Below, piece by piece: positions 6,632-33,879 of a stretch of DNA of 64,000 bases. Numbering within the stretch: the first letter of the stretch is position 1; the number at the start of each line of letters is the position of its first letter. Made by a program: the position numbers and the translations under genes. This stretch comes from a virus (lineage: Duplodnaviria > Heunggongvirae > Uroviricota > Caudoviricetes). The DNA lies in the IMG/VR virus record IMGVR_UViG_3300031555_005503, positions 41,352 through 105,351 of that record, one strand, 5' to 3'. Under the pieces are notes generated by a model. That model made no database searches. It saw only the letters and a program-made list of their open reading frames with translations, and was not told the origin of the DNA.

Positions 6632-9600
6632 ATGGTCAGTAATAATTGGCTGATTACCAATTATGAAAGTAACAGAATGATATTTAAATCCATTGAAAGA
6701 ATGGATGCGGATGGTAATATTACTAATGCTGTTTCATGGGGTATTGGTGGATTTGGACAAGCTAAAAAAGACAAACAAGAATTTCAAGATGCGTTAAACG
6801 AACAAGCTCATAAACGAGATAAGCAAGCTATTGCAGACTTTAATCATATGGTTAAAGTGCAAAACAAGAGTGTTAGTGAAGCTATTGCAAATTTAGGTGG
6901 GGCATCTGAAGCTGTAAAGCAATACTGTCAAGATGCTGGTGCAGCAGGTGCTGATGTTGATAAGTTCACTGAAAAACAAAAAGCTCAGCAAGAAGCTCTT
7001 GAAAAATCCAAGAAAGGCTTCAAAGGACTATCTGCTGCAACTAAAGCTATGGGCGCTAATATCCTGCTTGATCTTGGTGTTGCTGCTGCCATTGCTGCTA
7101 TCTCTGCTGGCTGGAACAAACTCAATAACGAATTTAAAATCACACCTGCCAAAAAGATCGAAGCCATGGAAACTACAGTCAACGACTACAATGCTGCCAT
7201 GGAAGAAAGTCAGAACGGCATTAAAACTATTCAGTCTCTTGAATCTGAATTTACTAGACTTTCTCAGGGTGTTGATGATAGCGGTCGTAATATCAGTCTA
7301 AGTGCTGAGGAATATGAACGATATAACGAGATAGTTAAAGAGTTGGTGGGTATAAGTCCTGAGTTAGTTCAGGGTTATACTGCTGAAGGAAATGCGATTG
7401 TAGATCGTAATACTGCTATCAAGGATGGGATTCAAGCTCAGAAGGATTATGCGGATGCGGCTAAAAATGCTTATACTGCTTCTATTAATGATATTGTCAA
7501 AGGTTCTAAAGAAAACATGAAGACTTCCACATCAGAAATGCGTGGTAGTCTTAGCGATTTTAGAGGATTAGATAGTATTACTTCTGATGTTGGATATAGT
7601 TCGAGATTAATAAATAAAGCATTAGGATATCAAGCAGATTTAACGACTGCTTCTGCTGAAACTCTAAATGATATTTATACTCATCGTGCTGAAATTATAA
7701 AATTAGCTAAAGAAGATGGCGTTGAAGAAGATAAAATTGCTGAAATGGAGGCTTATCTTAGTCAAATCGGTTCTGCATATTCTGAATTCGAATCATCTAT
7801 CCAGCCAATTTTAGATGTACTTAATGCATCTATTGCTGAAAATGCAAAAGTTCTTCCTGAATCTATGAGGGATAATTTACAAGCTGGGCTTAAAGAAATT
7901 GCAACTTTAGATATAGATGGCACAGAAATGAAAGCTAAAGCAATTCAACTCGTTGATACATTAGATACAATTTATAAATCTAATGAAGGTGGATATGCTG
8001 ACGCTTTAAAAGAAGCCAAAGAGGCTCAAGAAGACTTTATGGATTCTGATAGGTCTAAAGATGATGTTATTGAATACGATAAAGTTGTTCAGGATCATAT
8101 AGACACCATAACCGACTTAGCTAAAGAATACCAAAAAGCTGGTGACGATATTACCGCTGCGGCATTGTTTGAAGAAGCTTCTAAAATGGCGGACTTTGCA
8201 ACAGAGAATGTTCTTACTCTTGCTGAAGCATTTAATCCTTTAGCATCTGCGATGGAAGAGGCTCAAGGTGCAAAAGAGAAATTTGATAATGCTATGTCAG
8301 CTAATCCTGATTATGATACAGCTATCAATAGTTTTGGCGAAATTTTTGATGAAATTCTAGATGGCGATGATAATAAAGGTAATGGAAGTAAGGCATTTTG
8401 GCAAGGCGCAGAACAAATTCTCGGTTCAAAAACAATTCGTGAACTTGGCGGCGATTTCGATAAGGTTAATGCTCGCTTAAAAGAACTTAAATCTGGTGCA
8501 AAAGATAGTGCTTCTGCAACTGGTAAGTTCTTTAATATGCTTTTAAATAATGCAGATGAAATTGCAGAATTAGATTTAGGTAAAGTTTGGCAAACATCAA
8601 ATGGTGAAATTAAGTTTGATATTGATTCAAGCAATTGGGCTGAAGTTGCTGATATATTAGGCGTATCATATGAGTATTTAATTGCTATGCTTGATATGTC
8701 TAGAAAATGGGCAGAAATTGATTTATCTGATGATAATGCTGTAAAAACAGCCATTAGCGAAATGGAAACAACCCATAAAACTGCTGATGGAGAAATGTAT
8801 CAGCTTTATAGCAATATTCAATCTGAGGCTGTTGCCGCTGGATTAAGTATAGAAGAACTTGATGGGAAAATTAAGGATCTTACTTCAGAAGGTGTCCATG
8901 TAATCGATTTAGAGGTTGATGCTCCTGAAGATATTGCTGGCGCTCTTAGTGGAATGAGCAGTCAGCTCGCAACAGAGAAAGACGGAAAATATAAAATTAA
9001 TATTGAGAAAACCGTTGCTCAGTTGTTGGATATGGGAGCTAGTGAAGCTCAAATTGAAAAAACCATAAGTAAATGGGAAAAAGACGAAGATAAAAAATTT
9101 GAGTTACAAACAAAGAAACCTGATGATACTGAGTGGTCTGAATGGATTGGCAATATTAAAACAGAATGGCAAGCCGGTCTAGAAGATACTGATGATCCTT
9201 TCACAAAACTTTCAGACTCTGCAGATAAATTTGCTTCTTCAATTGAAAGATTAATAGCAGCATTAGGTTTTATGCCTGATATTGATATAGAAAGTAATCT
9301 TGACGATGTAAAAGAAGATATTGAAGATTTTGCTTTTAATTATGGCAATTTATCTGAGCTTGAAAAAGAAAAAGCTGTTGAAGGAATTAGCAATGAAATT
9401 GAAGAAGCCAAAGAACAACTTGATACTCTTAAAGCTTTAAGAGATGATCCTAATAATAAACTTACAAAAGATCAAAAAAATCAACTTGAATTAGATATAA
9501 CTAATGCTGAAAAGAATATTAAATTATATTCAAAGCTATTAGAAGATGTCAAAGACGATGGCGTTATTAATAATAGTATTAATTGCACAGTTAAAGGATA

Positions 9601-12600
9601 TGATGAACTTTTAACTGCGAATGAAGCTATAGAGGAAAATTCCGAAGAACCTGTTGAAAAAACGGTTGAATATACTGCAGTTTTACAAGAAGAATATGAT
9701 AAAATTGAAAACTGGGGATTAAGTGAATATGCTGAAGAAATAAAGAATGGTACTATTCAATCTGTTTTCGGAAATGTTGATATGGATAAGCGACCTATTA
9801 TTGAATGGTCGGATAAATTAAAGAAAACATATCAAGATGAACTTGCAAGTTGGGTTGATAGTGACGGCAATGTATATGATCCTATAGTTGGACAAATTGA
9901 TACTGTTTTGGGCGGTTCAGGTGGATTTAATATAGGTGACGAAGTTGTAGAAATTGCTTACACTCCTATTATGGAGGTTGATGGCGAAGCAAAATATCTT
10001 GGTAAAAATACTTTGGATAATTACATACAAAGTATTATAGATGAGGCTAACAAAGATGGGCAATGGTCACTTGATGAAATTTTAAAACTCGATGCTAAGG
10101 GTTTAAAAGTTGATAAAATTAATAGTGCTGGTGAGGTTGTAGGTAAAGAGTTTGTTAAAGGCGTAATTGCCGCTGTTGGTGATGAAGGCGCAATTTCTGC
10201 ACGAGACGTTGGCGAATTAATGCATTTTGCTGGTGATTATGGTGCTATTGGATTAGCTTCAAATGTTGAAAATCTTTCCAAAGAAATTGAAGTAGTATAT
10301 GATGATTCAAAATCATTAGACGATGTTGTTAATAATATACGTTTAATCGAAAATGAACAAATACAAAAAGAAGTTCTTTTAAAAACTGTAACTGATGGCA
10401 CATATAATGAAATCTTTAAAGGTTTATCTTATAATGATCAGAACATTGTCTTAAATGCAATTGTACAAGGCGATGGCAATTTTAATCAGCTTAGAAGAAT
10501 TATCGAGAGAATCGATAATGAAGATATTAGAGCTCAAATTGTTGCAGAATTAACTAATGCTGGAGCATTTAATGAATTTTTAAATAATATTAATCTTCTT
10601 ACCAATGAAGAGAAAAAAGTTGTAGTTGATGCTCTTGTCAAAGGAAAAGGCGACGCTGAAGAATTAAATGAAATATTATCTAACTTATCAGAAAGAGATA
10701 GAATCAAACTTACTGATTTAATAGAATCTACTGGTATAAAACTTACAGCTGATACTTCAGGTGTTGAAGAAGGCGTAGATATAGTCGAACAAAAAATAGG
10801 TCTTCTCCCTCCTTCTCATAATACTGTATTTGACGCTGATCCTTCTAAGGCATTATTCGCTTCTAATCAAGTTAATTTAGCAATTAATGATATTGACAAA
10901 GATCCATTTATAACTATTGGTGGAGGACTTTCGCCTAATCTTCAAAGTGCGTTAAATCGTATGAAGTCTTTGTTAAGCCAATCGAAAGCTGCTGGTTGGG
11001 TTCCTGCTGCAGAAGGCACATCTAATCGCCGTGTCTACCCTTCTATGGCTAGTGGTGGTAAAGTTGGACCAAATGGAAATGGTGGATTAACTCTTACCGG
11101 CGAATTAGGAACTGAACTTGTATGGCTTCCGGATCAAAATGAATCATTCTTAGTTGGTCAGTTTGGTCCTGAAATGGTTAATCTCCCTGCCAACGCCGTT
11201 GTTTGGCCTGCTGATGAAACTCGTCGTATTATTGGAGATACTATTCCGCATAGTCGCATGAGATTTGGCTCTTCTGCTGAAGGGCATATGACATTCGGTT
11301 CTATGTCTACCGGTGGCTTTAACTCTTCTAGTTACGGTGGATCCAGTTCAAAATCTTCTTCAAAGAGTAAATCTTCCTCTTCTTCTTCCGACTCAGCTTA
11401 TGAGAAAGCTAAAAAAGAGCTGGAACATCAGCTTGAAATGGGCTATATCACAGAAAGTGAATATTATACTAAACTCAAGAAGCTCTATGATAAATATAAG
11501 AAAGATCTTAAGAAGAATGTTGATGATCAGCGTGCAGCTCTTGAAGATTTACGTAGTGCTTGGATTGATGCTTATGAGGCTGCTGTTGATTCTTTAGATC
11601 ATCAGCTTGAAATGGGTAAAATTTCAGAAGCTGACTATCTGAAACAGCTTAAAGCTCTTGGTGATAAATACTTTAAAAATCGTAAAGGTTATGATAAGGA
11701 GTGGAAAGATCACCTCGAAGATCGCAAAGATGCTGCTAATGATGCTTATGATGCTGAAGTTGAAGCGCTCGAAGATTCACTTGATCGTGGTTTAATTAGT
11801 ATCCAGAATTACTATGCTGCCGTTACTAAGTTGCAGAATAAATATCTGACTGGTAAGGAAATGGTCGATGATCTCAAAGATGCCCAAGATGACATGTATG
11901 ATAATCTCATGGATGGTCTTGATAAGATTTGGGAAGATGCTGAACAGCAGATAGAAGATAATGATTTATTTGGCACTTGGGTTGAAGGCGGCCCTACTGC
12001 CATCGAAATCATGGAAGATGCATTTGACGAAATTGAAAAATTAAGTCATGATTATTTTGCAACAGAAACTGAACGTCTTGAATATCTTAAGGATAAAGAG
12101 CGCGAACTTGCAGAGGCTCGTAAGGATTATTATGAGGAGCGACAAGACCAATTAGATACGATTCTTGATTTAATTGAAGATATGCTTCGTCAAGAAGCTG
12201 AAGATTATATCGATTCTTTAGAAAAGCAAAAGGATGCGTATCAGGATATTATAGATGCCAAAAAGAAGTCCTTACAGCTTACTGAACGTGAACTGGATTA
12301 TCAGGATGAAATGAATGATTCTGCGCAAGAAATCAGTAAGCTTCAAGCTCGAATTGCAGTTCTCAGTCGTGATGATAGTAGAGCTGCAGCTGCAGAACGA
12401 GCAGAATTAGAAGCTCAGCTTGCAGAGGCTTTAAAAGATCAGAATCGAGCACAGCGCGACGAAACTTTGAATAGAACTGAAGATAGTCTTGATAAACAAG
12501 CTGAATTATTTACATCACTTATTGATAAGCAGATTGAAGTTGTTCAAAATTGGTTAGATAATAAATCAGCTGTTCTTGAAGTAGTTATGGATACTGTTGA

Positions 12601-13243
12601 ACAACGCGAGACTAACAATCTTCTGAATCGCCTTATTGCTTATAATGGTGAACATGGCGACGCAATGATGTCTACTATTGAAACCGCAATGAAAGATCTT
12701 GATGGTTTAATTGCGGAATATGGTAATGATGTTGAAAGTATCGTTGAGATTCTTCAGAAAGGTATTAATGTTCATGTTACTGGTGGTATTATCGGTGTAG
12801 ATCAAACTGATTATGCTGAAACTCAGACGGAAACTAAAAATAAACCGATAACGCATCATGATGGCCTTGCAACTGGATTTACTGGTAATGGCGCAGATCA
12901 GAAACAGCATGAAGTATATCGTTTACTTACTGATGATGAATTAGTATTTAATCGTGAAGATCAGTTGCGTATTGCAAGCCAGCTTCAGGTTCTTGATACT
13001 GTGAAAAAATCATTTTCTAATTTAGCTAAAGGCACTATTGCGCAGCCGTCGCAAACTAACCAGACTATTGAGTTAGTTATTAATGCCCCTATTACAATCC
13101 AAGGTAATGCAACTACCGATGTGGTAGAAAAGATCGAAAAGGCTATAGATAGCAGCGCAGACAAAGCATTATCTAAACTTAACGAAGCGCTTAGGATTAA
13201 TGGTGTTCATAGTAGAGCATCATCAAATTTACGAAAAAATTAA
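6632..13243 (+). CDS. tail tape measure protein (2203 aa) with C-terminal tandem coiled-coil repeats
   Basis: Very large coiled-coil protein placed directly upstream of Dit and Tal. Hydrophobic segment ILLDLGVAAAIAAISAGW. Ser/Lys linker. Three ~55-aa HQLEMGxISExxY repeats. Confidence 0.6.
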   Translation: MVSNNWLITNYESNRMIFKSIERMDADGNITNAVSWGIGGFGQAKKDKQEFQDALNEQAHKRDKQAIADFNHMVKVQNKSVSEAIANLGGASEAVKQYCQDAGAAGADVDKFTEKQKAQQEALEKSKKGFKGLSAATKAMGANILLDLGVAAAIAAISAGWNKLNNEFKITPAKKIEAMETTVNDYNAAMEESQNGIKTIQSLESEFTRLSQGVDDSGRNISLSAEEYERYNEIVKELVGISPELVQGYTAEGNAIVDRNTAIKDGIQAQKDYADAAKNAYTASINDIVKGSKENMKTSTSEMRGSLSDFRGLDSITSDVGYSSRLINKALGYQADLTTASAETLNDIYTHRAEIIKLAKEDGVEEDKIAEMEAYLSQIGSAYSEFESSIQPILDVLNASIAENAKVLPESMRDNLQAGLKEIATLDIDGTEMKAKAIQLVDTLDTIYKSNEGGYADALKEAKEAQEDFMDSDRSKDDVIEYDKVVQDHIDTITDLAKEYQKAGDDITAAALFEEASKMADFATENVLTLAEAFNPLASAMEEAQGAKEKFDNAMSANPDYDTAINSFGEIFDEILDGDDNKGNGSKAFWQGAEQILGSKTIRELGGDFDKVNARLKELKSGAKDSASATGKFFNMLLNNADEIAELDLGKVWQTSNGEIKFDIDSSNWAEVADILGVSYEYLIAMLDMSRKWAEIDLSDDNAVKTAISEMETTHKTADGEMYQLYSNIQSEAVAAGLSIEELDGKIKDLTSEGVHVIDLEVDAPEDIAGALSGMSSQLATEKDGKYKINIEKTVAQLLDMGASEAQIEKTISKWEKDEDKKFELQTKKPDDTEWSEWIGNIKTEWQAGLEDTDDPFTKLSDSADKFASSIERLIAALGFMPDIDIESNLDDVKEDIEDFAFNYGNLSELEKEKAVEGISNEIEEAKEQLDTLKALRDDPNNKLTKDQKNQLELDITNAEKNIKLYSKLLEDVKDDGVINNSINCTVKGYDELLTANEAIEENSEEPVEKTVEYTAVLQEEYDKIENWGLSEYAEEIKNGTIQSVFGNVDMDKRPIIEWSDKLKKTYQDELASWVDSDGNVYDPIVGQIDTVLGGSGGFNIGDEVVEIAYTPIMEVDGEAKYLGKNTLDNYIQSIIDEANKDGQWSLDEILKLDAKGLKVDKINSAGEVVGKEFVKGVIAAVGDEGAISARDVGELMHFAGDYGAIGLASNVENLSKEIEVVYDDSKSLDDVVNNIRLIENEQIQKEVLLKTVTDGTYNEIFKGLSYNDQNIVLNAIVQGDGNFNQLRRIIERIDNEDIRAQIVAELTNAGAFNEFLNNINLLTNEEKKVVVDALVKGKGDAEELNEILSNLSERDRIKLTDLIESTGIKLTADTSGVEEGVDIVEQKIGLLPPSHNTVFDADPSKALFASNQVNLAINDIDKDPFITIGGGLSPNLQSALNRMKSLLSQSKAAGWVPAAEGTSNRRVYPSMASGGKVGPNGNGGLTLTGELGTELVWLPDQNESFLVGQFGPEMVNLPANAVVWPADETRRIIGDTIPHSRMRFGSSAEGHMTFGSMSTGGFNSSSYGGSSSKSSSKSKSSSSSSDSAYEKAKKELEHQLEMGYITESEYYTKLKKLYDKYKKDLKKNVDDQRAALEDLRSAWIDAYEAAVDSLDHQLEMGKISEADYLKQLKALGDKYFKNRKGYDKEWKDHLEDRKDAANDAYDAEVEALEDSLDRGLISIQNYYAAVTKLQNKYLTGKEMVDDLKDAQDDMYDNLMDGLDKIWEDAEQQIEDNDLFGTWVEGGPTAIEIMEDAFDEIEKLSHDYFATETERLEYLKDKERELAEARKDYYEERQDQLDTILDLIEDMLRQEAEDYIDSLEKQKDAYQDIIDAKKKSLQLTERELDYQDEMNDSAQEISKLQARIAVLSRDDSRAAAAERAELEAQLAEALKDQNRAQRDETLNRTEDSLDKQAELFTSLIDKQIEVVQNWLDNKSAVLEVVMDTVEQRETNNLLNRLIAYNGEHGDAMMSTIETAMKDLDGLIAEYGNDVESIVEILQKGINVHVTGGIIGVDQTDYAETQTETKNKPITHHDGLATGFTGNGADQKQHEVYRLLTDDELVFNREDQLRIASQLQVLDTVKKSFSNLAKGTIAQPSQTNQTIELVINAPITIQGNATTDVVEKIEKAIDSSADKALSKLNEALRINGVHSRASSNLRKN

Positions 13244-30140: not shown

Positions 30141-30533
30141 TTAAGCCTTAGTTTTTCTCTTCTTTTCATCTACCCCTCTTTCTCTTTTAAAAAGCCATAT
30201 GACATGATTTGCCACTCTTATGATAATATTCTTGTCTTCATCTTTTAAACGGTGATATAAATCAAACCCTGTTGTCCCATCAAAATCATGAAAGACGTAT
30301 CCATATTGTGTGGCTGTTTTTATATCTCCTTTATATTCGGATTGTCTTTGTGCTAAGAAGTAGGCTACTTTGTCATATTGATGATCTGTAAAAATCGAAT
30401 CATCGTTTTCGTAATAAATATAACTATTTACAATAATCCATCGTTGTAAGAAGCTAAGATATTCTTCTTCTGACATGTCACTTGGAGGTTTTAATAAATG
30501 TTTAATACTAATCATATTTGACGTTGATTTCAT
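30141..30533 (-). CDS. hypothetical protein with LigA domain-Ia-like (NMN-binding) N-terminal motif
   Basis: YIYYENDDSIFTDHQYD fits the Y(x)3D(x)3I(x)D(x)2YD pattern of YHVMDAPEIPDAEYD in NAD-ligase domain Ia. Confidence 0.3.
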   Translation of the reverse strand: MKSTSNMISIKHLLKPPSDMSEEEYLSFLQRWIIVNSYIYYENDDSIFTDHQYDKVAYFLAQRQSEYKGDIKTATQYGYVFHDFDGTTGFDLYHRLKDEDKNIIIRVANHVIWLFKRERGVDEKKRKTKA

Positions 30534-31455
30534 CTAATACATGTCCCATTCCAAGACCTTCTCTATTAGGCTGCCAAACTCCATTCTCATCATATTCTCC
30601 CCCTTGAATACAATATTTATATAATTTAGGATGAGTTTCTTTAAGACGTTGGAATCTATTTGGCTCCTTTTCAAGATGAGCGCCAAAGCCACAAAATACA
30701 CACCCGGTACGATCACACCCGGTAAGGTAATATCTTCCTTGTTCGTCTTGTTTGATCTCGCCATATACAGATGCATATGGTACATCAAATTCTTTCAAAT
30801 ATTGAAGAATATCTTGTTCAAGCCATATTGATAATGGCTTTGAAGATGGTGTTTTCTCTGTAAATGAATTACAACCATATTTAATATATTGAGATCTTCT
30901 TTGTCTGCTCTCTTCGGCCATTATGCCTATATATGGCTTACGACCTGATTCTTTACCATATTTTTTTATAGGACTTTTCTTCATGTGATAGCAGCATTTA
31001 TCAGATATTTTGAAGTCAGTGTTTAAAAGGAATTTCCATTTCGATTTATCAAACATAGATGTTTTCCCATTCTTTAATTTATCGGCTGTACCCATTAACT
31101 GTTTAAGACGCGAACACTCTTTACCATTTTTTAAAGCCACACGGCCATATTCTATTGCAGAAGCCACATCTTTACTAATAATAGGATATCCATACATAGT
31201 TAATATCTGATCAAATCGTATCTTAGGTCTTACAATTACATCTGCTCTTTCTCTTGCGAAAGCTCTAACTTCAGGATATTCTAATCCCGTATCGGAAAAT
31301 ACGACCGGCACATCTGGATACATTTCTTTAACTAAATGCATTAATACAGTGCTATCTTTTCCGCCACTAAATGATATATAAACTTGTCCATCCCAATACT
31401 CATACCACTCTTTAATTCTTTGTTTTGCTAATGTAATTTTGGCTTCAAGTGGCAA
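30508..31455 (-). CDS. phosphoadenosine-phosphosulfate reductase family (PP-loop) protein
   Basis: PP-loop SFSGGKDS. C-terminal Cys cluster CDRTGCVFCGFG. Confidence 0.65.
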   Translation of the reverse strand: MPLEAKITLAKQRIKEWYEYWDGQVYISFSGGKDSTVLMHLVKEMYPDVPVVFSDTGLEYPEVRAFARERADVIVRPKIRFDQILTMYGYPIISKDVASAIEYGRVALKNGKECSRLKQLMGTADKLKNGKTSMFDKSKWKFLLNTDFKISDKCCYHMKKSPIKKYGKESGRKPYIGIMAEESRQRRSQYIKYGCNSFTEKTPSSKPLSIWLEQDILQYLKEFDVPYASVYGEIKQDEQGRYYLTGCDRTGCVFCGFGAHLEKEPNRFQRLKETHPKLYKYCIQGGEYDENGVWQPNREGLGMGHVLDEINVKYD

Positions 31456-31583: not shown

Positions 31584-32405
31584 TTATCTATTATCTACTA
31601 TCGTACTCGCACCTTTAATTTCAACCCAACCATGCTTGATTCTGGCTTCCATTTCCATTTTCTTTAAGAGCTCGTCTGTAATAGATTCTGCAATAATTTT
31701 ATTTGCCTTAGCTTCTGCTTCTGCTTTAACTTTTTTAGTTTCAGCTTCAATTTTCTGTTTTTCTAATTCCTGCTTAGCAGCTTCAATTTCCTGTGCTTTT
31801 TTACTTCTTTCATTGATAGCCTGCTTAATTGCCTTTTCCGGTTCAGCTCTTGGCAATGTCGCTGATTCAACAATTACACCATATGGCTTTAACTTTTCTT
31901 GTAAATGTTTTGTTAATTCAGTATTAACCTCGGACTTCTTATCCATATAAGCTTCAAGGACTGTATATTCTGAAGTAACTTCATTTACGTATGTACGAGC
32001 CTTACTCTTGATTCTTGAATTAACAATATCTTCACCAGAAAGACCTCTATACTTAGTTGCGATGGTTGGGATGTCTTCTGCATTGAAATGATATGACATT
32101 TCTAAATCAACATTTAAAACACCATCCTGGCATGTCGCATTAAACGCTTCATTTTCTTCAGAACCATCTCTTTCGTCTTTAGTCATTAATAATTGTTCTG
32201 TAGCTATTGAGTATTTAGTCACCTTTTTATGCGGCGCTATAAAATGCCAACCTTCACTTAATACTTCATCGGAAGTACCACCTCTGATTGAATATACAGA
32301 TCCTACATGTCCTCGTGGAATCTTTTCAATAGATAAAATACCAATAATTAATGCTAATAGTAATAACGGAATAATGATATAAAATGCTTTCCCTTTTTTA
32401 TTCAC
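31584..32405 (-). CDS. SPFH/band-7 (prohibitin/stomatin-like) membrane protein
   Basis: N-terminal TM segment. SPFH-like core. Coiled-coil Ala/Glu/Lys-rich C-terminus. Probable GTG start at 32405. Confidence 0.65.
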   Translation of the reverse strand: MNKKGKAFYIIIPLLLLALIIGILSIEKIPRGHVGSVYSIRGGTSDEVLSEGWHFIAPHKKVTKYSIATEQLLMTKDERDGSEENEAFNATCQDGVLNVDLEMSYHFNAEDIPTIATKYRGLSGEDIVNSRIKSKARTYVNEVTSEYTVLEAYMDKKSEVNTELTKHLQEKLKPYGVIVESATLPRAEPEKAIKQAINERSKKAQEIEAAKQELEKQKIEAETKKVKAEAEAKANKIIAESITDELLKKMEMEARIKHGWVEIKGASTIVDNR

Positions 32406-32557
32406 TATCGTCTTCTACCCTTTCCTCATCTAAATTCTCTATAAATGTGTCAACAAAATCCGTGGCTTTATTATAAATTTTATCGCCGCTAAAATAACAA
32501 ATGCCAGCCGCTATAACAGCTAAAGCTATAATTGTTAATAAACCTAATACAATCATT
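32398..32557 (-). CDS. small membrane protein (52 aa), translationally coupled to the SPFH gene
   Basis: MIVLGLLTIIALAVIAAGICYF... The stop overlaps the SPFH start (GTGAATAA). Too short to appear in the ORF track. Confidence 0.3.
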
Positions 32558-32572
32558 TTTTACATCACTCCT

Positions 32573-33742
32573 TTACAAATCCCAATCTTCATCTCTTACT
32601 GCAAAAGCATCTCCTCTTTGAATAATATCTGGATAATTTTTAAGCGCTATTTGCATAGCATAATTGTCTATTTCATACGCATAGTATTTAATATTAGTGA
32701 ACCCCATCTTATCTAAGCAATATCTTCCGGTTCCAATACCATCGTACATAGATAAAACAATAATCTCTTCATCTCGTGGAATATCTTTTAATACACCATC
32801 TAGAATATGTATAATGACTTCAGCAGTCCAACCATTGCCAAGTCCTTTATATCGCTGTGTATTACTTACTCCTGCAGTATAATTATCCGGCAATGTTTGT
32901 AATCGCTCGCATTCTATTGGTGATAATTTTCTTATGATGTAATAACCATCTTGAAGTTTAATAGGATATTTTTGCTCCTTAATTTCAATAGCTCCATCTT
33001 TTACACAATAAACATTTTCACCACGAATATTAGATACTTTTTCTGCACAAATATTATAAGGAACACCCTTATGTATATTAGCCGTTATACAACAAGCCTT
33101 ATCTTTTTCATCAGGTTTTTGCAAATAAGTCCAACGATCACTATATTTGCCATTAGTTCCACGTACCATATAATCTAATTCTCGTTCGCTTAGATGTTTT
33201 ATCGGAGTGGCATACAATCCTGTTTTGCCACCCTGTCCACCACCACCAGCATTAATTGTGACTGATTTTCCTTCAGGTGAATATATTCGATGGGCTTGAG
33301 CAGTACTGCCAATATCTCCTATACGAATTATCCCACCATCATGATCGGTAGCATTATCTCCAATAGTTTCAATACGATAGCCCTCTTCCATAAAAGGCTC
33401 ATTACTTTCTAAAATATCTTTCAATAAGATGCCTCTATCTTCAGGTTGCTCTACTTCCCAATTAAATACATAAAATCGTTGTCTATTCTGAGCTGAAACT
33501 AATGATGAATTTATATTCATTAAATCAGTTCCAAGCTCAGTGCAAATTTGAGACTTTATAGCCTCTGATGCAGATTTATTATTTTCATATAAGAAATAAT
33601 CTGGTTGAAATTTTTCTTTAGCTATTAAATAATTCTTAAATAACTCCCAACCTTGGCCTGCAGCTTCTATCTCTCGATTCTTTTTTTGAGCGATAGACCA
33701 ATGAGTACAGGGTGATCCCCCTAATAACAGTTTTATTGTCAA
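32573..33742 (-). CDS. DNA (cytosine-5)-methyltransferase, circularly permuted motif order
   Basis: Motif IV GGSPCTHWS sits at the N-terminus. It is followed by VI (FLYENN), VIII (QNRQRF), IX (RKLSPIECERLQTLPDNYT) and X (GLGNGWT). Motif I (MYDGIGTG) and motif II (YEIDNYA) lie at the C-terminus. Confidence 0.7.
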   Translation of the reverse strand: MTIKLLLGGSPCTHWSIAQKKNREIEAAGQGWELFKNYLIAKEKFQPDYFLYENNKSASEAIKSQICTELGTDLMNINSSLVSAQNRQRFYVFNWEVEQPEDRGILLKDILESNEPFMEEGYRIETIGDNATDHDGGIIRIGDIGSTAQAHRIYSPEGKSVTINAGGGGQGGKTGLYATPIKHLSERELDYMVRGTNGKYSDRWTYLQKPDEKDKACCITANIHKGVPYNICAEKVSNIRGENVYCVKDGAIEIKEQKYPIKLQDGYYIIRKLSPIECERLQTLPDNYTAGVSNTQRYKGLGNGWTAEVIIHILDGVLKDIPRDEEIIVLSMYDGIGTGRYCLDKMGFTNIKYYAYEIDNYAMQIALKNYPDIIQRGDAFAVRDEDWDL

Positions 33743-33879
33743 ATAAATTTAAAAGGAAATCCGGATTTATTGTGGCCACAACCTTATCTCCTTTCATTTT
33801 TATTTAAGATTTATATAAAATTTCAGATTGACAGACTATTAACTAAACTTTTTATACTTCTAAGCTTTTAACATTTTAA

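Follow-up and report, generated by a model that had tools for sequence, protein, structure and literature searches.

What kind of protein is encoded by a phage gene that seems to start in the middle of a DNA cytosine-5 (C5) methyltransferase? The gene lies on the minus strand (32573..33742) of a 64,000-nucleotide stretch of DNA from a tailed phage (Caudoviricetes), positions 41,352 to 105,351 of the IMG/VR record IMGVR_UViG_3300031555_005503, and the whole of this stretch is called the window below. Canonical enzymes of the C5 superfamily run from motif I to motif X, whereas this protein opens with motif IV. Either its first part has been missed upstream of the open reading frame (ORF), or the chain is circularly permuted. 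A sequence-only reading of the gene had favored permutation with a breakpoint between motifs II and IV. We consider it about 85% probable that the gene encodes a functional S-adenosylmethionine (AdoMet)-dependent C5 DNA methyltransferase, of predicted activity and target, having a circularly permuted chain.

A methyltransferase chain that begins at motif IV

The ORF (32573..33742, minus strand, stop codon 32573-32575) encodes 389 residues from a TTG start codon, and the Joint Genome Institute gene call P0001 is the same protein (100% identity). As the sequence-only reading had described, the ORF opens directly with motif IV, and motifs VI, VIII, IX and X, said to follow it, and motifs I and II, said to be C-terminal, were all located. 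Motif III (GDAF) is also C-terminal and hence the breakpoint is III/IV. The proposed permutation therefore stood, whereas its assignment to II/IV did not. The motif order is IV, VI, VIII, target recognition domain (TRD), IX, X, I, II, III, laid out as follows.

32573..33742, minus strand: complete ORF, permuted C5 DNA methyltransferase (profile match, identical P0001, in-frame TAA upstream)
33695..33721, minus strand: motif IV, GGSPCTHWS, residues 8-16, with catalytic Cys12 (sequence reading; G, G, S, P, C and T invariant in 59 homologues)
33578..33595, minus strand: motif VI, FLYENN, residues 50-55, Glu53 being the ENV-type glutamate (homologue alignment)
33470..33496, minus strand: motif VIII, SAQNRQRFY, residues 83-91, with Arg87 and Arg89 (both arginines invariant)
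33203..33340, minus strand: variable-region module A, residues 135-180, like the M.HhaI TRD (IRIGDIGSTAQAHRIYSPEGKSVTINAGGGGQGGKTGLY; HhaI alignment, recurs in relatives)
33014..33202, minus strand: variable-region module B, residues 181-243, LSERELDYMVR...ACCITANIHKGVPYN (second unit, also found without module A)
32876..33013, minus strand: family-specific beta-hairpin, residues 244-270, then motif IX, RKLSPIECERLQTLPDNYT, residues 271-289 (R271-T289; alignment and AlphaFold2 model)
32789..32845, minus strand: motif X and helix, GLGNGWTAEVIIHILDGVL (GLGNGW...), residues 300-318 (G300-L318), equivalent to the C-terminal helix of canonical enzymes
32762..32788, minus strand: fusion linker KDIPRDEEI, residues 319-327, from former C-terminus to former N-terminus (canonical ends are ...HILRGLKNK before the stop, and MK(I/V)LSLFDG)
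32726..32761, minus strand: motif I, IVLSMYDGIGTG, residues 328-339 (I328-G339), strand beta1 and AdoMet-binding loop (DNMT3B N-terminus alignment, tblastn, conservation)
32666..32686, minus strand: motif II, YYAYEID, residues 353-359, with Glu357 (canonical alignment, conservation)
32597..32629, minus strand: motif III, DIIQRGDAFAV, residues 372-382, with Asp378 (colinear with canonical enzymes across the join)

A missed upstream exon or N-terminal extension was ruled out by three observations. Three codons ahead of the TTG there is an in-frame TAA (33749-33751), the 137-nucleotide spacer to the upstream ERCC4-nuclease gene contains stops in the frame of the ORF, and tblastn of two canonical relatives against the 64 kb window matched the motif I-III segment solely at 32758-32594 (E values of 1e-14 to 1e-16). 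The last of these is the 3' end of the methyltransferase ORF, downstream of the IV-X match at 33736-32789, and the same searches found no other motif I-III coding sequence in the window. Inspection of the neighboring frames, a check proposed together with the original reading, thus gave no upstream motifs I-III, and the permutation stands.

Membership in the C5 superfamily was established with the Pfam profile PF00145, which matched residues 3-315 over profile positions 62-320 of 324 (76.2 bits, E value 4e-21, cut-off 22). As the match opens at profile position 62, it begins at motif IV. When the last 65 residues were moved to the front the match covered positions 3-320 of 324 and the score rose from 76.2 to 91.7 bits. 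The catalytic set is present (Pro11-Cys12 of motif IV, Glu53 in the ENN of motif VI, Arg87 and Arg89 of motif VIII) and the AdoMet-binding set is found at the C-terminus (Asp334-Gly335-Ile-Gly337 of motif I, Glu357 of motif II, Asp378 of motif III). The C-terminal motifs I-III align with the N-terminus of DNMT3B and with residues 3-57 of gp12 of Roseobacter phage CRP-9, a canonical enzyme. The de-permuted query aligned colinearly and over its full length with both CRP-9 gp12 (35% identity, E value 4e-57) and the canonical metagenomic protein P0265 (39% identity, E value 6e-81), and P0265 has the same unusual motif IV as the permuted family, GGSPCTYWSIA. Canonical relatives begin M.(V/I)LSLFDG and end GNGWTV(E/D)VI.HI..G.. 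before the stop, and in the window protein about nine residues join the two ends. At the new termini, the C-terminal ...GDAFAVRDEDWDL (followed by the stop) and the N-terminal MTIKLLLGGSPC flank the site at which canonical enzymes have a continuous III-to-IV loop. Strand beta4 starts at about residue 3, and the chain stops seven residues past motif III (RDEDWDL and the stop), at the point where canonical enzymes continue into beta4 and motif IV. The canonical I-to-X order is not that of the window enzyme, and the permuted order leaves its membership in the C5 superfamily unaffected, as the examples of DRM and M.BssHII make clear. Profile matches, pairwise alignments, the structural model and the comparison of relatives all bore out the proposed circular permutation.

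The structural evidence came from an AlphaFold2 model built on the 59-sequence alignment; in both, residue numbers are one lower than in the ORF. Confidence was high in the catalytic core (predicted local distance difference test (pLDDT) values of about 75-97 over model residues 1-100 and 270-388; predicted template modeling score 0.64). The first strand comprises model residues 2-8 and the secondary structure elements run beta4, alphaD, beta5, alphaE, beta6, beta7, the IX-X helices, beta1, alphaA, beta2, alphaB and beta3, which is how a class I methyltransferase would run if its chain began at beta4, and the model has the class I fold. Plant DRM2 and DNMT3 were the best structural matches, and the top Foldseek ranks were likewise DRM, DNMT3 and HhaI. 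The canonical C5 enzymes M.MpeI, M.HhaI and M.HaeIII scored 9.8, 9.8 and 8.9, respectively, and members of the beta class of amino methyltransferases scored about equally (Mbo45V Mod 10.0, TTHA0409 10.0, M.BceJIV 9.6, M.MboIIA 9.4, M.PvuII 9.2, CcrM 8.9, EcoP15I Mod 8.8), a result that a sequential aligner should give for a chain running IV-VIII, TRD, X, I-III. With a class I fold and an M.HhaI score of 9.8, the structure prediction proposed at the outset came out in favor of the permuted methyltransferase.

Several observations weigh against the assignment or its details. The NCBIfam model TIGR00675 gave a score of 71.5 and its cut-off of 100.65 was not reached. Motif IV has PCT rather than PCQ or PCN, motif VI has ENN rather than ENV, and the gene has a TTG start codon with no obvious Shine-Dalgarno sequence. 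The variable region (about model residues 105-269) was poorly modeled, with pLDDT below 50, and hence DNA recognition lacks structural support. Finally, the closeness of the two termini and the beta1-beta4 pairing are inferred rather than read from coordinates.

In the enzyme that we propose, the chain would begin at beta4 and motif IV (Cys12) and continue with motifs VI and VIII to give the catalytic half. The modular DNA-recognition region, motifs IX-X and the nine-residue linker would follow, and the AdoMet-binding half (I-III) would come at the end. The two termini would meet at the position of the canonical III-to-IV loop, such that a single chain closes into a normal class I methyltransferase fold. 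The chemistry would be the usual one, with base flipping, attack of Cys12 on C6, protonation by Glu53 and methyl transfer to C5.

Closure within one chain is not the only way in which the two halves could be brought together. The two chain ends sit within the Rossmann-like sheet, between beta3 and beta4, where a domain swap is geometrically easy, and DRM2 and DNMT3, to which the structure is closest, function as dimers or tetramers. Moreover, split C5 methyltransferase fragments can complement in trans (PMC5944983). An enzyme active only as a domain-swapped dimer or oligomer, in which I-III of one chain completes IV-X of another, nevertheless seems to us improbable, and we retain the permuted enzyme that closes as a single chain.

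The variable region and DNA recognition

The variable region of the window enzyme spans about residues 100-270. Residues 94-178 of the query align with HhaI residues 179-266, glycine-rich loop included, and in this alignment Gln149 and Arg152 of module A pair with Gln237 and Arg240 of HhaI, two residues that touch duplex DNA. Module A was found in 195 of 283 relatives, in as many as five tandem copies of about 42 residues, and module B in 63 of them (138 relatives had A only, 6 had B only and 57 had both). Module order varies, with B preceding A in some relatives and following it in others. Because the modules recur in tandem, independently and in varying order, the variable region can be described as an array of shuffling mini-TRD-like units.

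The window enzyme has one copy of each module. Judged by its likeness to HhaI, module A suggests a GCGC-like target, and through modules A and B together the enzyme may recognize more than one target. We examined the tetranucleotide palindromes of the window and found that GCGC and CCGG are not under-represented (observed/expected ratios of 0.90 and 1.39, respectively). Those that are under-represented are CTAG (0.47), GGCC (0.60), CGCG (0.60), CATG (0.70), GTAC (0.73) and GATC (0.74). The lack of GCGC avoidance fits protection of GCGC by methylation, although as weak evidence, and the overall pattern may reflect which host restriction sites are handled by avoidance and which by methylation.

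The variable region is nearly absent from four complete relatives, P0143 (residues 1-250), P0144 (245 residues), P0149 and P0277, in which the conserved hairpin (PVYEV.DGEIEIKGKKFPIKLPDG.YIIRKLTP) and motif IX come immediately after motif VIII. Such enzymes might have relaxed specificity or none.

Could the C5 scaffold be put to another use? The sequence-only reading had mentioned a base-modifying enzyme of altered specificity, a suggestion that loses its ground given that all of the catalytic and AdoMet residues of C5 methyltransferases are kept and that part of the variable region is M.HhaI-like. Transfer of a non-methyl group (for example carboxymethyl from carboxy-S-adenosylmethionine, Cx-SAM), or action on RNA or single-stranded replication intermediates, is very unlikely. 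Motifs I-III are of the usual AdoMet-binding type and resemble those of DNMT3, the structural score with 8yf3 was no better than those with ordinary C5 methyltransferases, no gene for a CmoA-like Cx-SAM synthase was present among the ten neighbors scanned, and the duplex DNA contacts of HhaI have their counterparts in module A.

Distribution, selection and origin of the permuted family

The window enzyme is one of many of its kind. Among its 120 best homologues in a collection of 5.8 billion proteins, motif IV lies no further in than residue 22, except in one sequence truncated at its N-terminus, and nearly all begin M(I/V)K(L/I)L(I/L)GGSPCT.WS. Motif I lies about 57 residues before the C-terminus (..GDAFDLRHPDWTIGY and the stop) in all 120, and lengths range from 346 to 571 residues. 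To search for the family we used a 122-residue IX-X-I-III query against 1.84 billion representatives clustered at 50% identity, which gave 137 matches at E values of 1e-30 or below. The best 150 clusters comprised 57 complete permuted proteins and 62 fragments with the same junction (about 119 permuted clusters together), the remainder being about 20 canonical proteins and a few tandem or partial-tandem proteins (P0181, P0211, P0207 and P0214).

A pattern scan of species-representative genomes found 182 stretches encoding the permuted form, almost all in gut Clostridia (Oscillospiraceae, Ruminococcus, Acutalibacteraceae, Christensenellaceae and Lachnospiraceae). Isolates that carry it include Butyricicoccus pullicaecorum DSM 23266, Flavonifractor sp. 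An82, Acutalibacter intestini and Criibacterium bergeronii, and one copy in a metagenome-assembled genome lies within a temperate phage region having integrase, repressor and holin genes. The same scan of IMG/VR gave at least 183 viral contigs with the permuted form. Among 50,697 deposited phage records the permuted order was confirmed in only two: phage nd4, where the 558-residue protein is annotated as a "hypothetical protein", and MT836645, an unannotated human-faecal scaffold that gave a single colinear match to the query. Hence, the earlier remark that such a permutation is uncommon in phage methyltransferases holds for deposited records but not for the metagenomic phages and prophages of gut Clostridia, where it is common. 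In a third deposited record, the human-faecal phage scaffold MT835543 (L004, 1501-3128), a family member is frameshifted just before motif IX, owing either to a sequencing error or to its being a pseudogene.

Motif order cannot be established from query coverage alone, because tblastn pieces are joined regardless of order. Our initial tblastn table showed 93-99% query coverage in Roseobacter, Vibrio, Croceibacter and Pelagibacter phages and was misleading on this point. Wide carriage of the permuted form by cultured phages was rejected, as CRP-9 gp12 and the Vibrio 1.133.O gene translate to canonical I-X proteins. The order-blind joining of alignment pieces thus hides permutation: canonical genes look full-length against a permuted query, and the reverse is also possible. 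A megablast search of deposited phages with the 12 kb around the gene gave only a 113-nucleotide match within the DNA polymerase III (Pol III) alpha gene, to Bacillus phages, and the window phage therefore has no close cultured relative.

In the 59-sequence alignment the catalytic cysteine, both motif VIII arginines, the Asp-Gly of motif I, the glutamate of motif II and the aspartate of motif III are invariant, and the motif VI glutamate is nearly so. Ratios of nonsynonymous to synonymous substitution (dN/dS, Nei-Gojobori method) were obtained for 124 intact genes from 160 fetched loci (80 from species genomes plus 80 from IMG/VR). The values were 0.048 for the IV-VIII core, 0.099 for IX-X and 0.052 for the linker plus I-III, and all measured segments of the permuted gene are under strong purifying selection. 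As the C-terminal I-III segment is as constrained as the catalytic core, a decaying remnant is excluded. Despite the existence of tandem and partial-tandem relatives (P0211, P0181, P0207 and P0214) and of the frameshifted MT835543 copy, we therefore give almost no credence to the idea that the ORF is a translated but inactive leftover of a pair of methyltransferase genes, neighboring or fused, that had suffered deletions, given identical boundaries in about 119 of the 150 best clusters and in the 124 intact genes, catalytic and cofactor-binding residues that are all invariant or nearly so, and a dN/dS of about 0.05 at both ends of the gene.

The relatives also bear on how the permutation arose. 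The lineage having the PCT.WSIA motif holds three forms, canonical P0265, tandem P0211 and the permuted family. In P0211 (962 residues) two copies, each with GGSPCTYWSIAQ, are fused in frame and in tandem, (I-X)(I-X). A related lineage having PCQ contains the tandem fusion P0181 (618 residues) and the partial tandems P0207 (556 residues) and P0214 (459 residues), of the form (IX-X)(I-X), which begin with IX-X yet keep a complete second copy. Canonical, tandem and permuted forms together make up the series predicted by the model of duplication, fusion and truncation. Laboratory work on M.HaeIII, M.MpeI and M.SssI has retraced this series, and both the tandem dimers and the permutants cut at II/III or III/IV were active (PMC5944983). 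We regard P0211, P0181, P0207 and P0214 as candidate evolutionary intermediates. The most likely origin of the family is an in-frame tandem fusion, (I-X)(I-X), in a canonical ancestor, after which the first copy would have lost I-III and the second IV-X, a direction of change that is itself an inference. Against this, the tandem forms may have been fused later and need not be ancestral.

Some family members are extended at the C-terminus. Phage nd4 (L003, 5998-7674), B. pullicaecorum (L013, 2998-4398), P0100, P0141, P0143 and P0267 form a sub-family with an acidic low-complexity linker past motif III. The linker is followed by a conserved tail of about 40 residues (..ALEYAIG.LRR / ..EYAVSILEAMAI), except that P0267 has a different C-terminal domain of about 150 residues instead (..REANAYVEQHHRHHGP..).

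Genomic context and relation to known methyltransferases

The window phage has 32.5% GC and is large and siphovirus-like. Its plus strand (6632-13243) encodes a tape measure protein of 2203 residues followed by large tail proteins of 734 and 1167 residues, which points to a long-tailed siphovirus whose genome measures 110 kb or more, the Joint Genome Institute contig being 110 kb in length. The methyltransferase gene belongs to a minus-strand replication module that runs DnaB-like helicase, primase, PD-(D/E)XK exonuclease, Pol III alpha, ERCC4 nuclease and methyltransferase, followed by a 52-residue membrane peptide, an SPFH protein, a 3'-phosphoadenosine-5'-phosphosulfate (PAPS)-reductase-like protein and an Nlig-Ia domain protein. 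Among these neighboring genes no restriction endonuclease gene is adjacent to the methyltransferase, and since there is no cognate restriction gene the enzyme is an orphan. A promoter and terminator scan around the gene found 13 elements versus 11.5 expected in shuffled sequence; with counts no better than those of shuffled sequence the scan was uninformative. From its sequence and setting, the most likely role is that of an orphan phage 5-methylcytosine methyltransferase that would mark phage DNA during replication and so allow it to escape host restriction.

Other features of the locus deserve mention. The genes directly downstream encode the membrane peptide (32398-32556, minus strand) and the SPFH/Band 7 protein (31584-32405, minus strand; phrog_200, "lipoprotein"), which places an SPFH protein inside a phage replication module. 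Further along (30141-31455, minus strand), the gene for the PAPS-reductase-like protein (315 residues, phrog_424) overlaps that for a 130-residue protein consisting only of the Ia domain of nicotinamide adenine dinucleotide (NAD)-dependent ligase (PF22745); the two may be a DNA-modification or nucleotide-metabolism pair. In the temperate-phage copy P0061 (L005, 4483-7948) two NUMOD4/HNH_3 homing-endonuclease-like genes flank the methyltransferase, and upstream are ERCC4, PD-(D/E)XK, AAA_24 and DUF669 genes, the ERCC4-nuclease neighborhood being common to this locus and the window.

How does the enzyme compare with known systems? It has in common with canonical C5 enzymes (CRP-9 gp12, P0265 and M.HhaI) all ten motifs and the catalytic residues (35-39% identity when de-permuted), an HhaI-like TRD segment and an orphan phage context. 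It differs in running IV-X and then I-III, in the linker of about nine residues at the old ends and in having its new termini within the III/IV loop. Bacillus phage C5 methyltransferases (SPR, phi3T, rho11s and H2, from the Trautner laboratory) are multispecific orphan enzymes with tandem TRD units of about 40-50 residues in a canonical I-X chain. The window family resembles them in being orphan phage enzymes with a shuffled, tandem module A of about 42 residues, multispecificity being predicted from this architecture only.

Plant DRM enzymes are permuted in another way, with the order VI-X then I-V. In DRM1/DRM2 (PDB 4onj, 4onq, 7l4c and 7l4f) motif IV is near the C-terminus, and ntDRM residues 309-342 align with motif IV of the query. 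DRM proteins are eukaryotic, carry UBA domains and act in RNA-directed DNA methylation, whereas the window enzyme has no extra domains and belongs to phages of bacterial hosts. The junction of the window enzyme resembles that of DRM because DNMT3-like ends (..LK(D/E).. and ..VLSLFDG) have been fused, and canonical relatives have both ends. Common descent of the two permutations is therefore not supported: the breakpoints differ and the likeness of the junctions is otherwise explained. More speculatively, the DNMT3/DRM-like phage clade could be the prokaryotic source of the catalytic domain of eukaryotic DNMT3 and DRM.

The natural permutants of Type H (M.BssHII, M.Alw26I, M2.Eco31I, M.Esp3I, M2.BsaI and others) have their N-terminus in the variable region and the order (TRD)-IX-X-I-VIII (PMC5944983). 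A 2018 survey of REBASE counted 27 natural prokaryotic permuted C5 methyltransferases, all of Type H with breakpoints in the variable region (PMC5944983). Both Type H proteins and the window enzyme are circular permutants in which motif X is joined to motif I. However, Type H keeps both structural domains intact, whereas the window enzyme is cut inside the catalytic domain (III/IV), and it is not of Type H, since motif IV is at residues 8-16 and motifs VI and VIII precede IX-X. Its topology is instead Type C as described in PMC5944983 and corresponds to one class of the evolved cpM.HaeIII variants. Among the laboratory permutants, cpM.HaeIII (Peisajovich, Rockah and Tawfik 2006, as reported in PMC5944983) and cpM.MpeI and cpM.SssI of Types B and C, active enzymes were obtained with II/III, within-III or III/IV breakpoints, and tandem-duplicated intermediates were also active (PMC5944983). 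All of these were engineered or selected in vitro, whereas the window family is natural, diversified and abundant.

The chain order IV-VIII, TRD, X, I-III is also that of the beta-class N6-adenine and N4-cytosine methyltransferases (M.PvuII, M.RsrI, M.MboIIA, CcrM and type III Mod). Those enzymes have (D/S)PP(Y/F) as motif IV and modify exocyclic amino groups, whereas the window enzyme has GGSPCT with a catalytic cysteine, and identities are 7-14%. It is not a beta-class member: the chain order is common, the chemistry is different and there is no homology beyond the fold. C5 enzymes thus reached the beta-class order independently.

Our literature searches, which did not extend to REBASE itself, found no description of a natural C5 methyltransferase permuted at III/IV, and prior recognition is possible. 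With confidence only somewhat above even, we believe this to be the first recognized natural C5 methyltransferase lineage with a III/IV breakpoint, one that occurs in abundance among gut Clostridia phages and prophages, preserves in living sequences a canonical, tandem and permuted series known until now from directed evolution alone, and has shuffling mini-TRDs that would give multispecific anti-restriction methylation. Family genes are annotated merely as generic methylases or hypothetical proteins.

DNA methyltransferases are a textbook example of how protein topology evolves by circular permutation. The authors of the 2018 survey suggested that nature favors routes in which both domains stay whole (PMC5944983), a generalization contradicted by a large natural family that is under purifying selection and is cut between motifs III and IV. 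The chemistry and biological role of the window enzyme are expected to be ordinary. The coexisting canonical and tandem relatives provide a natural test set for the duplication-truncation model, and the arrays of mini-TRDs on a compact core could aid the prediction and engineering of specificity and the reading of gut phage-host methylomes.

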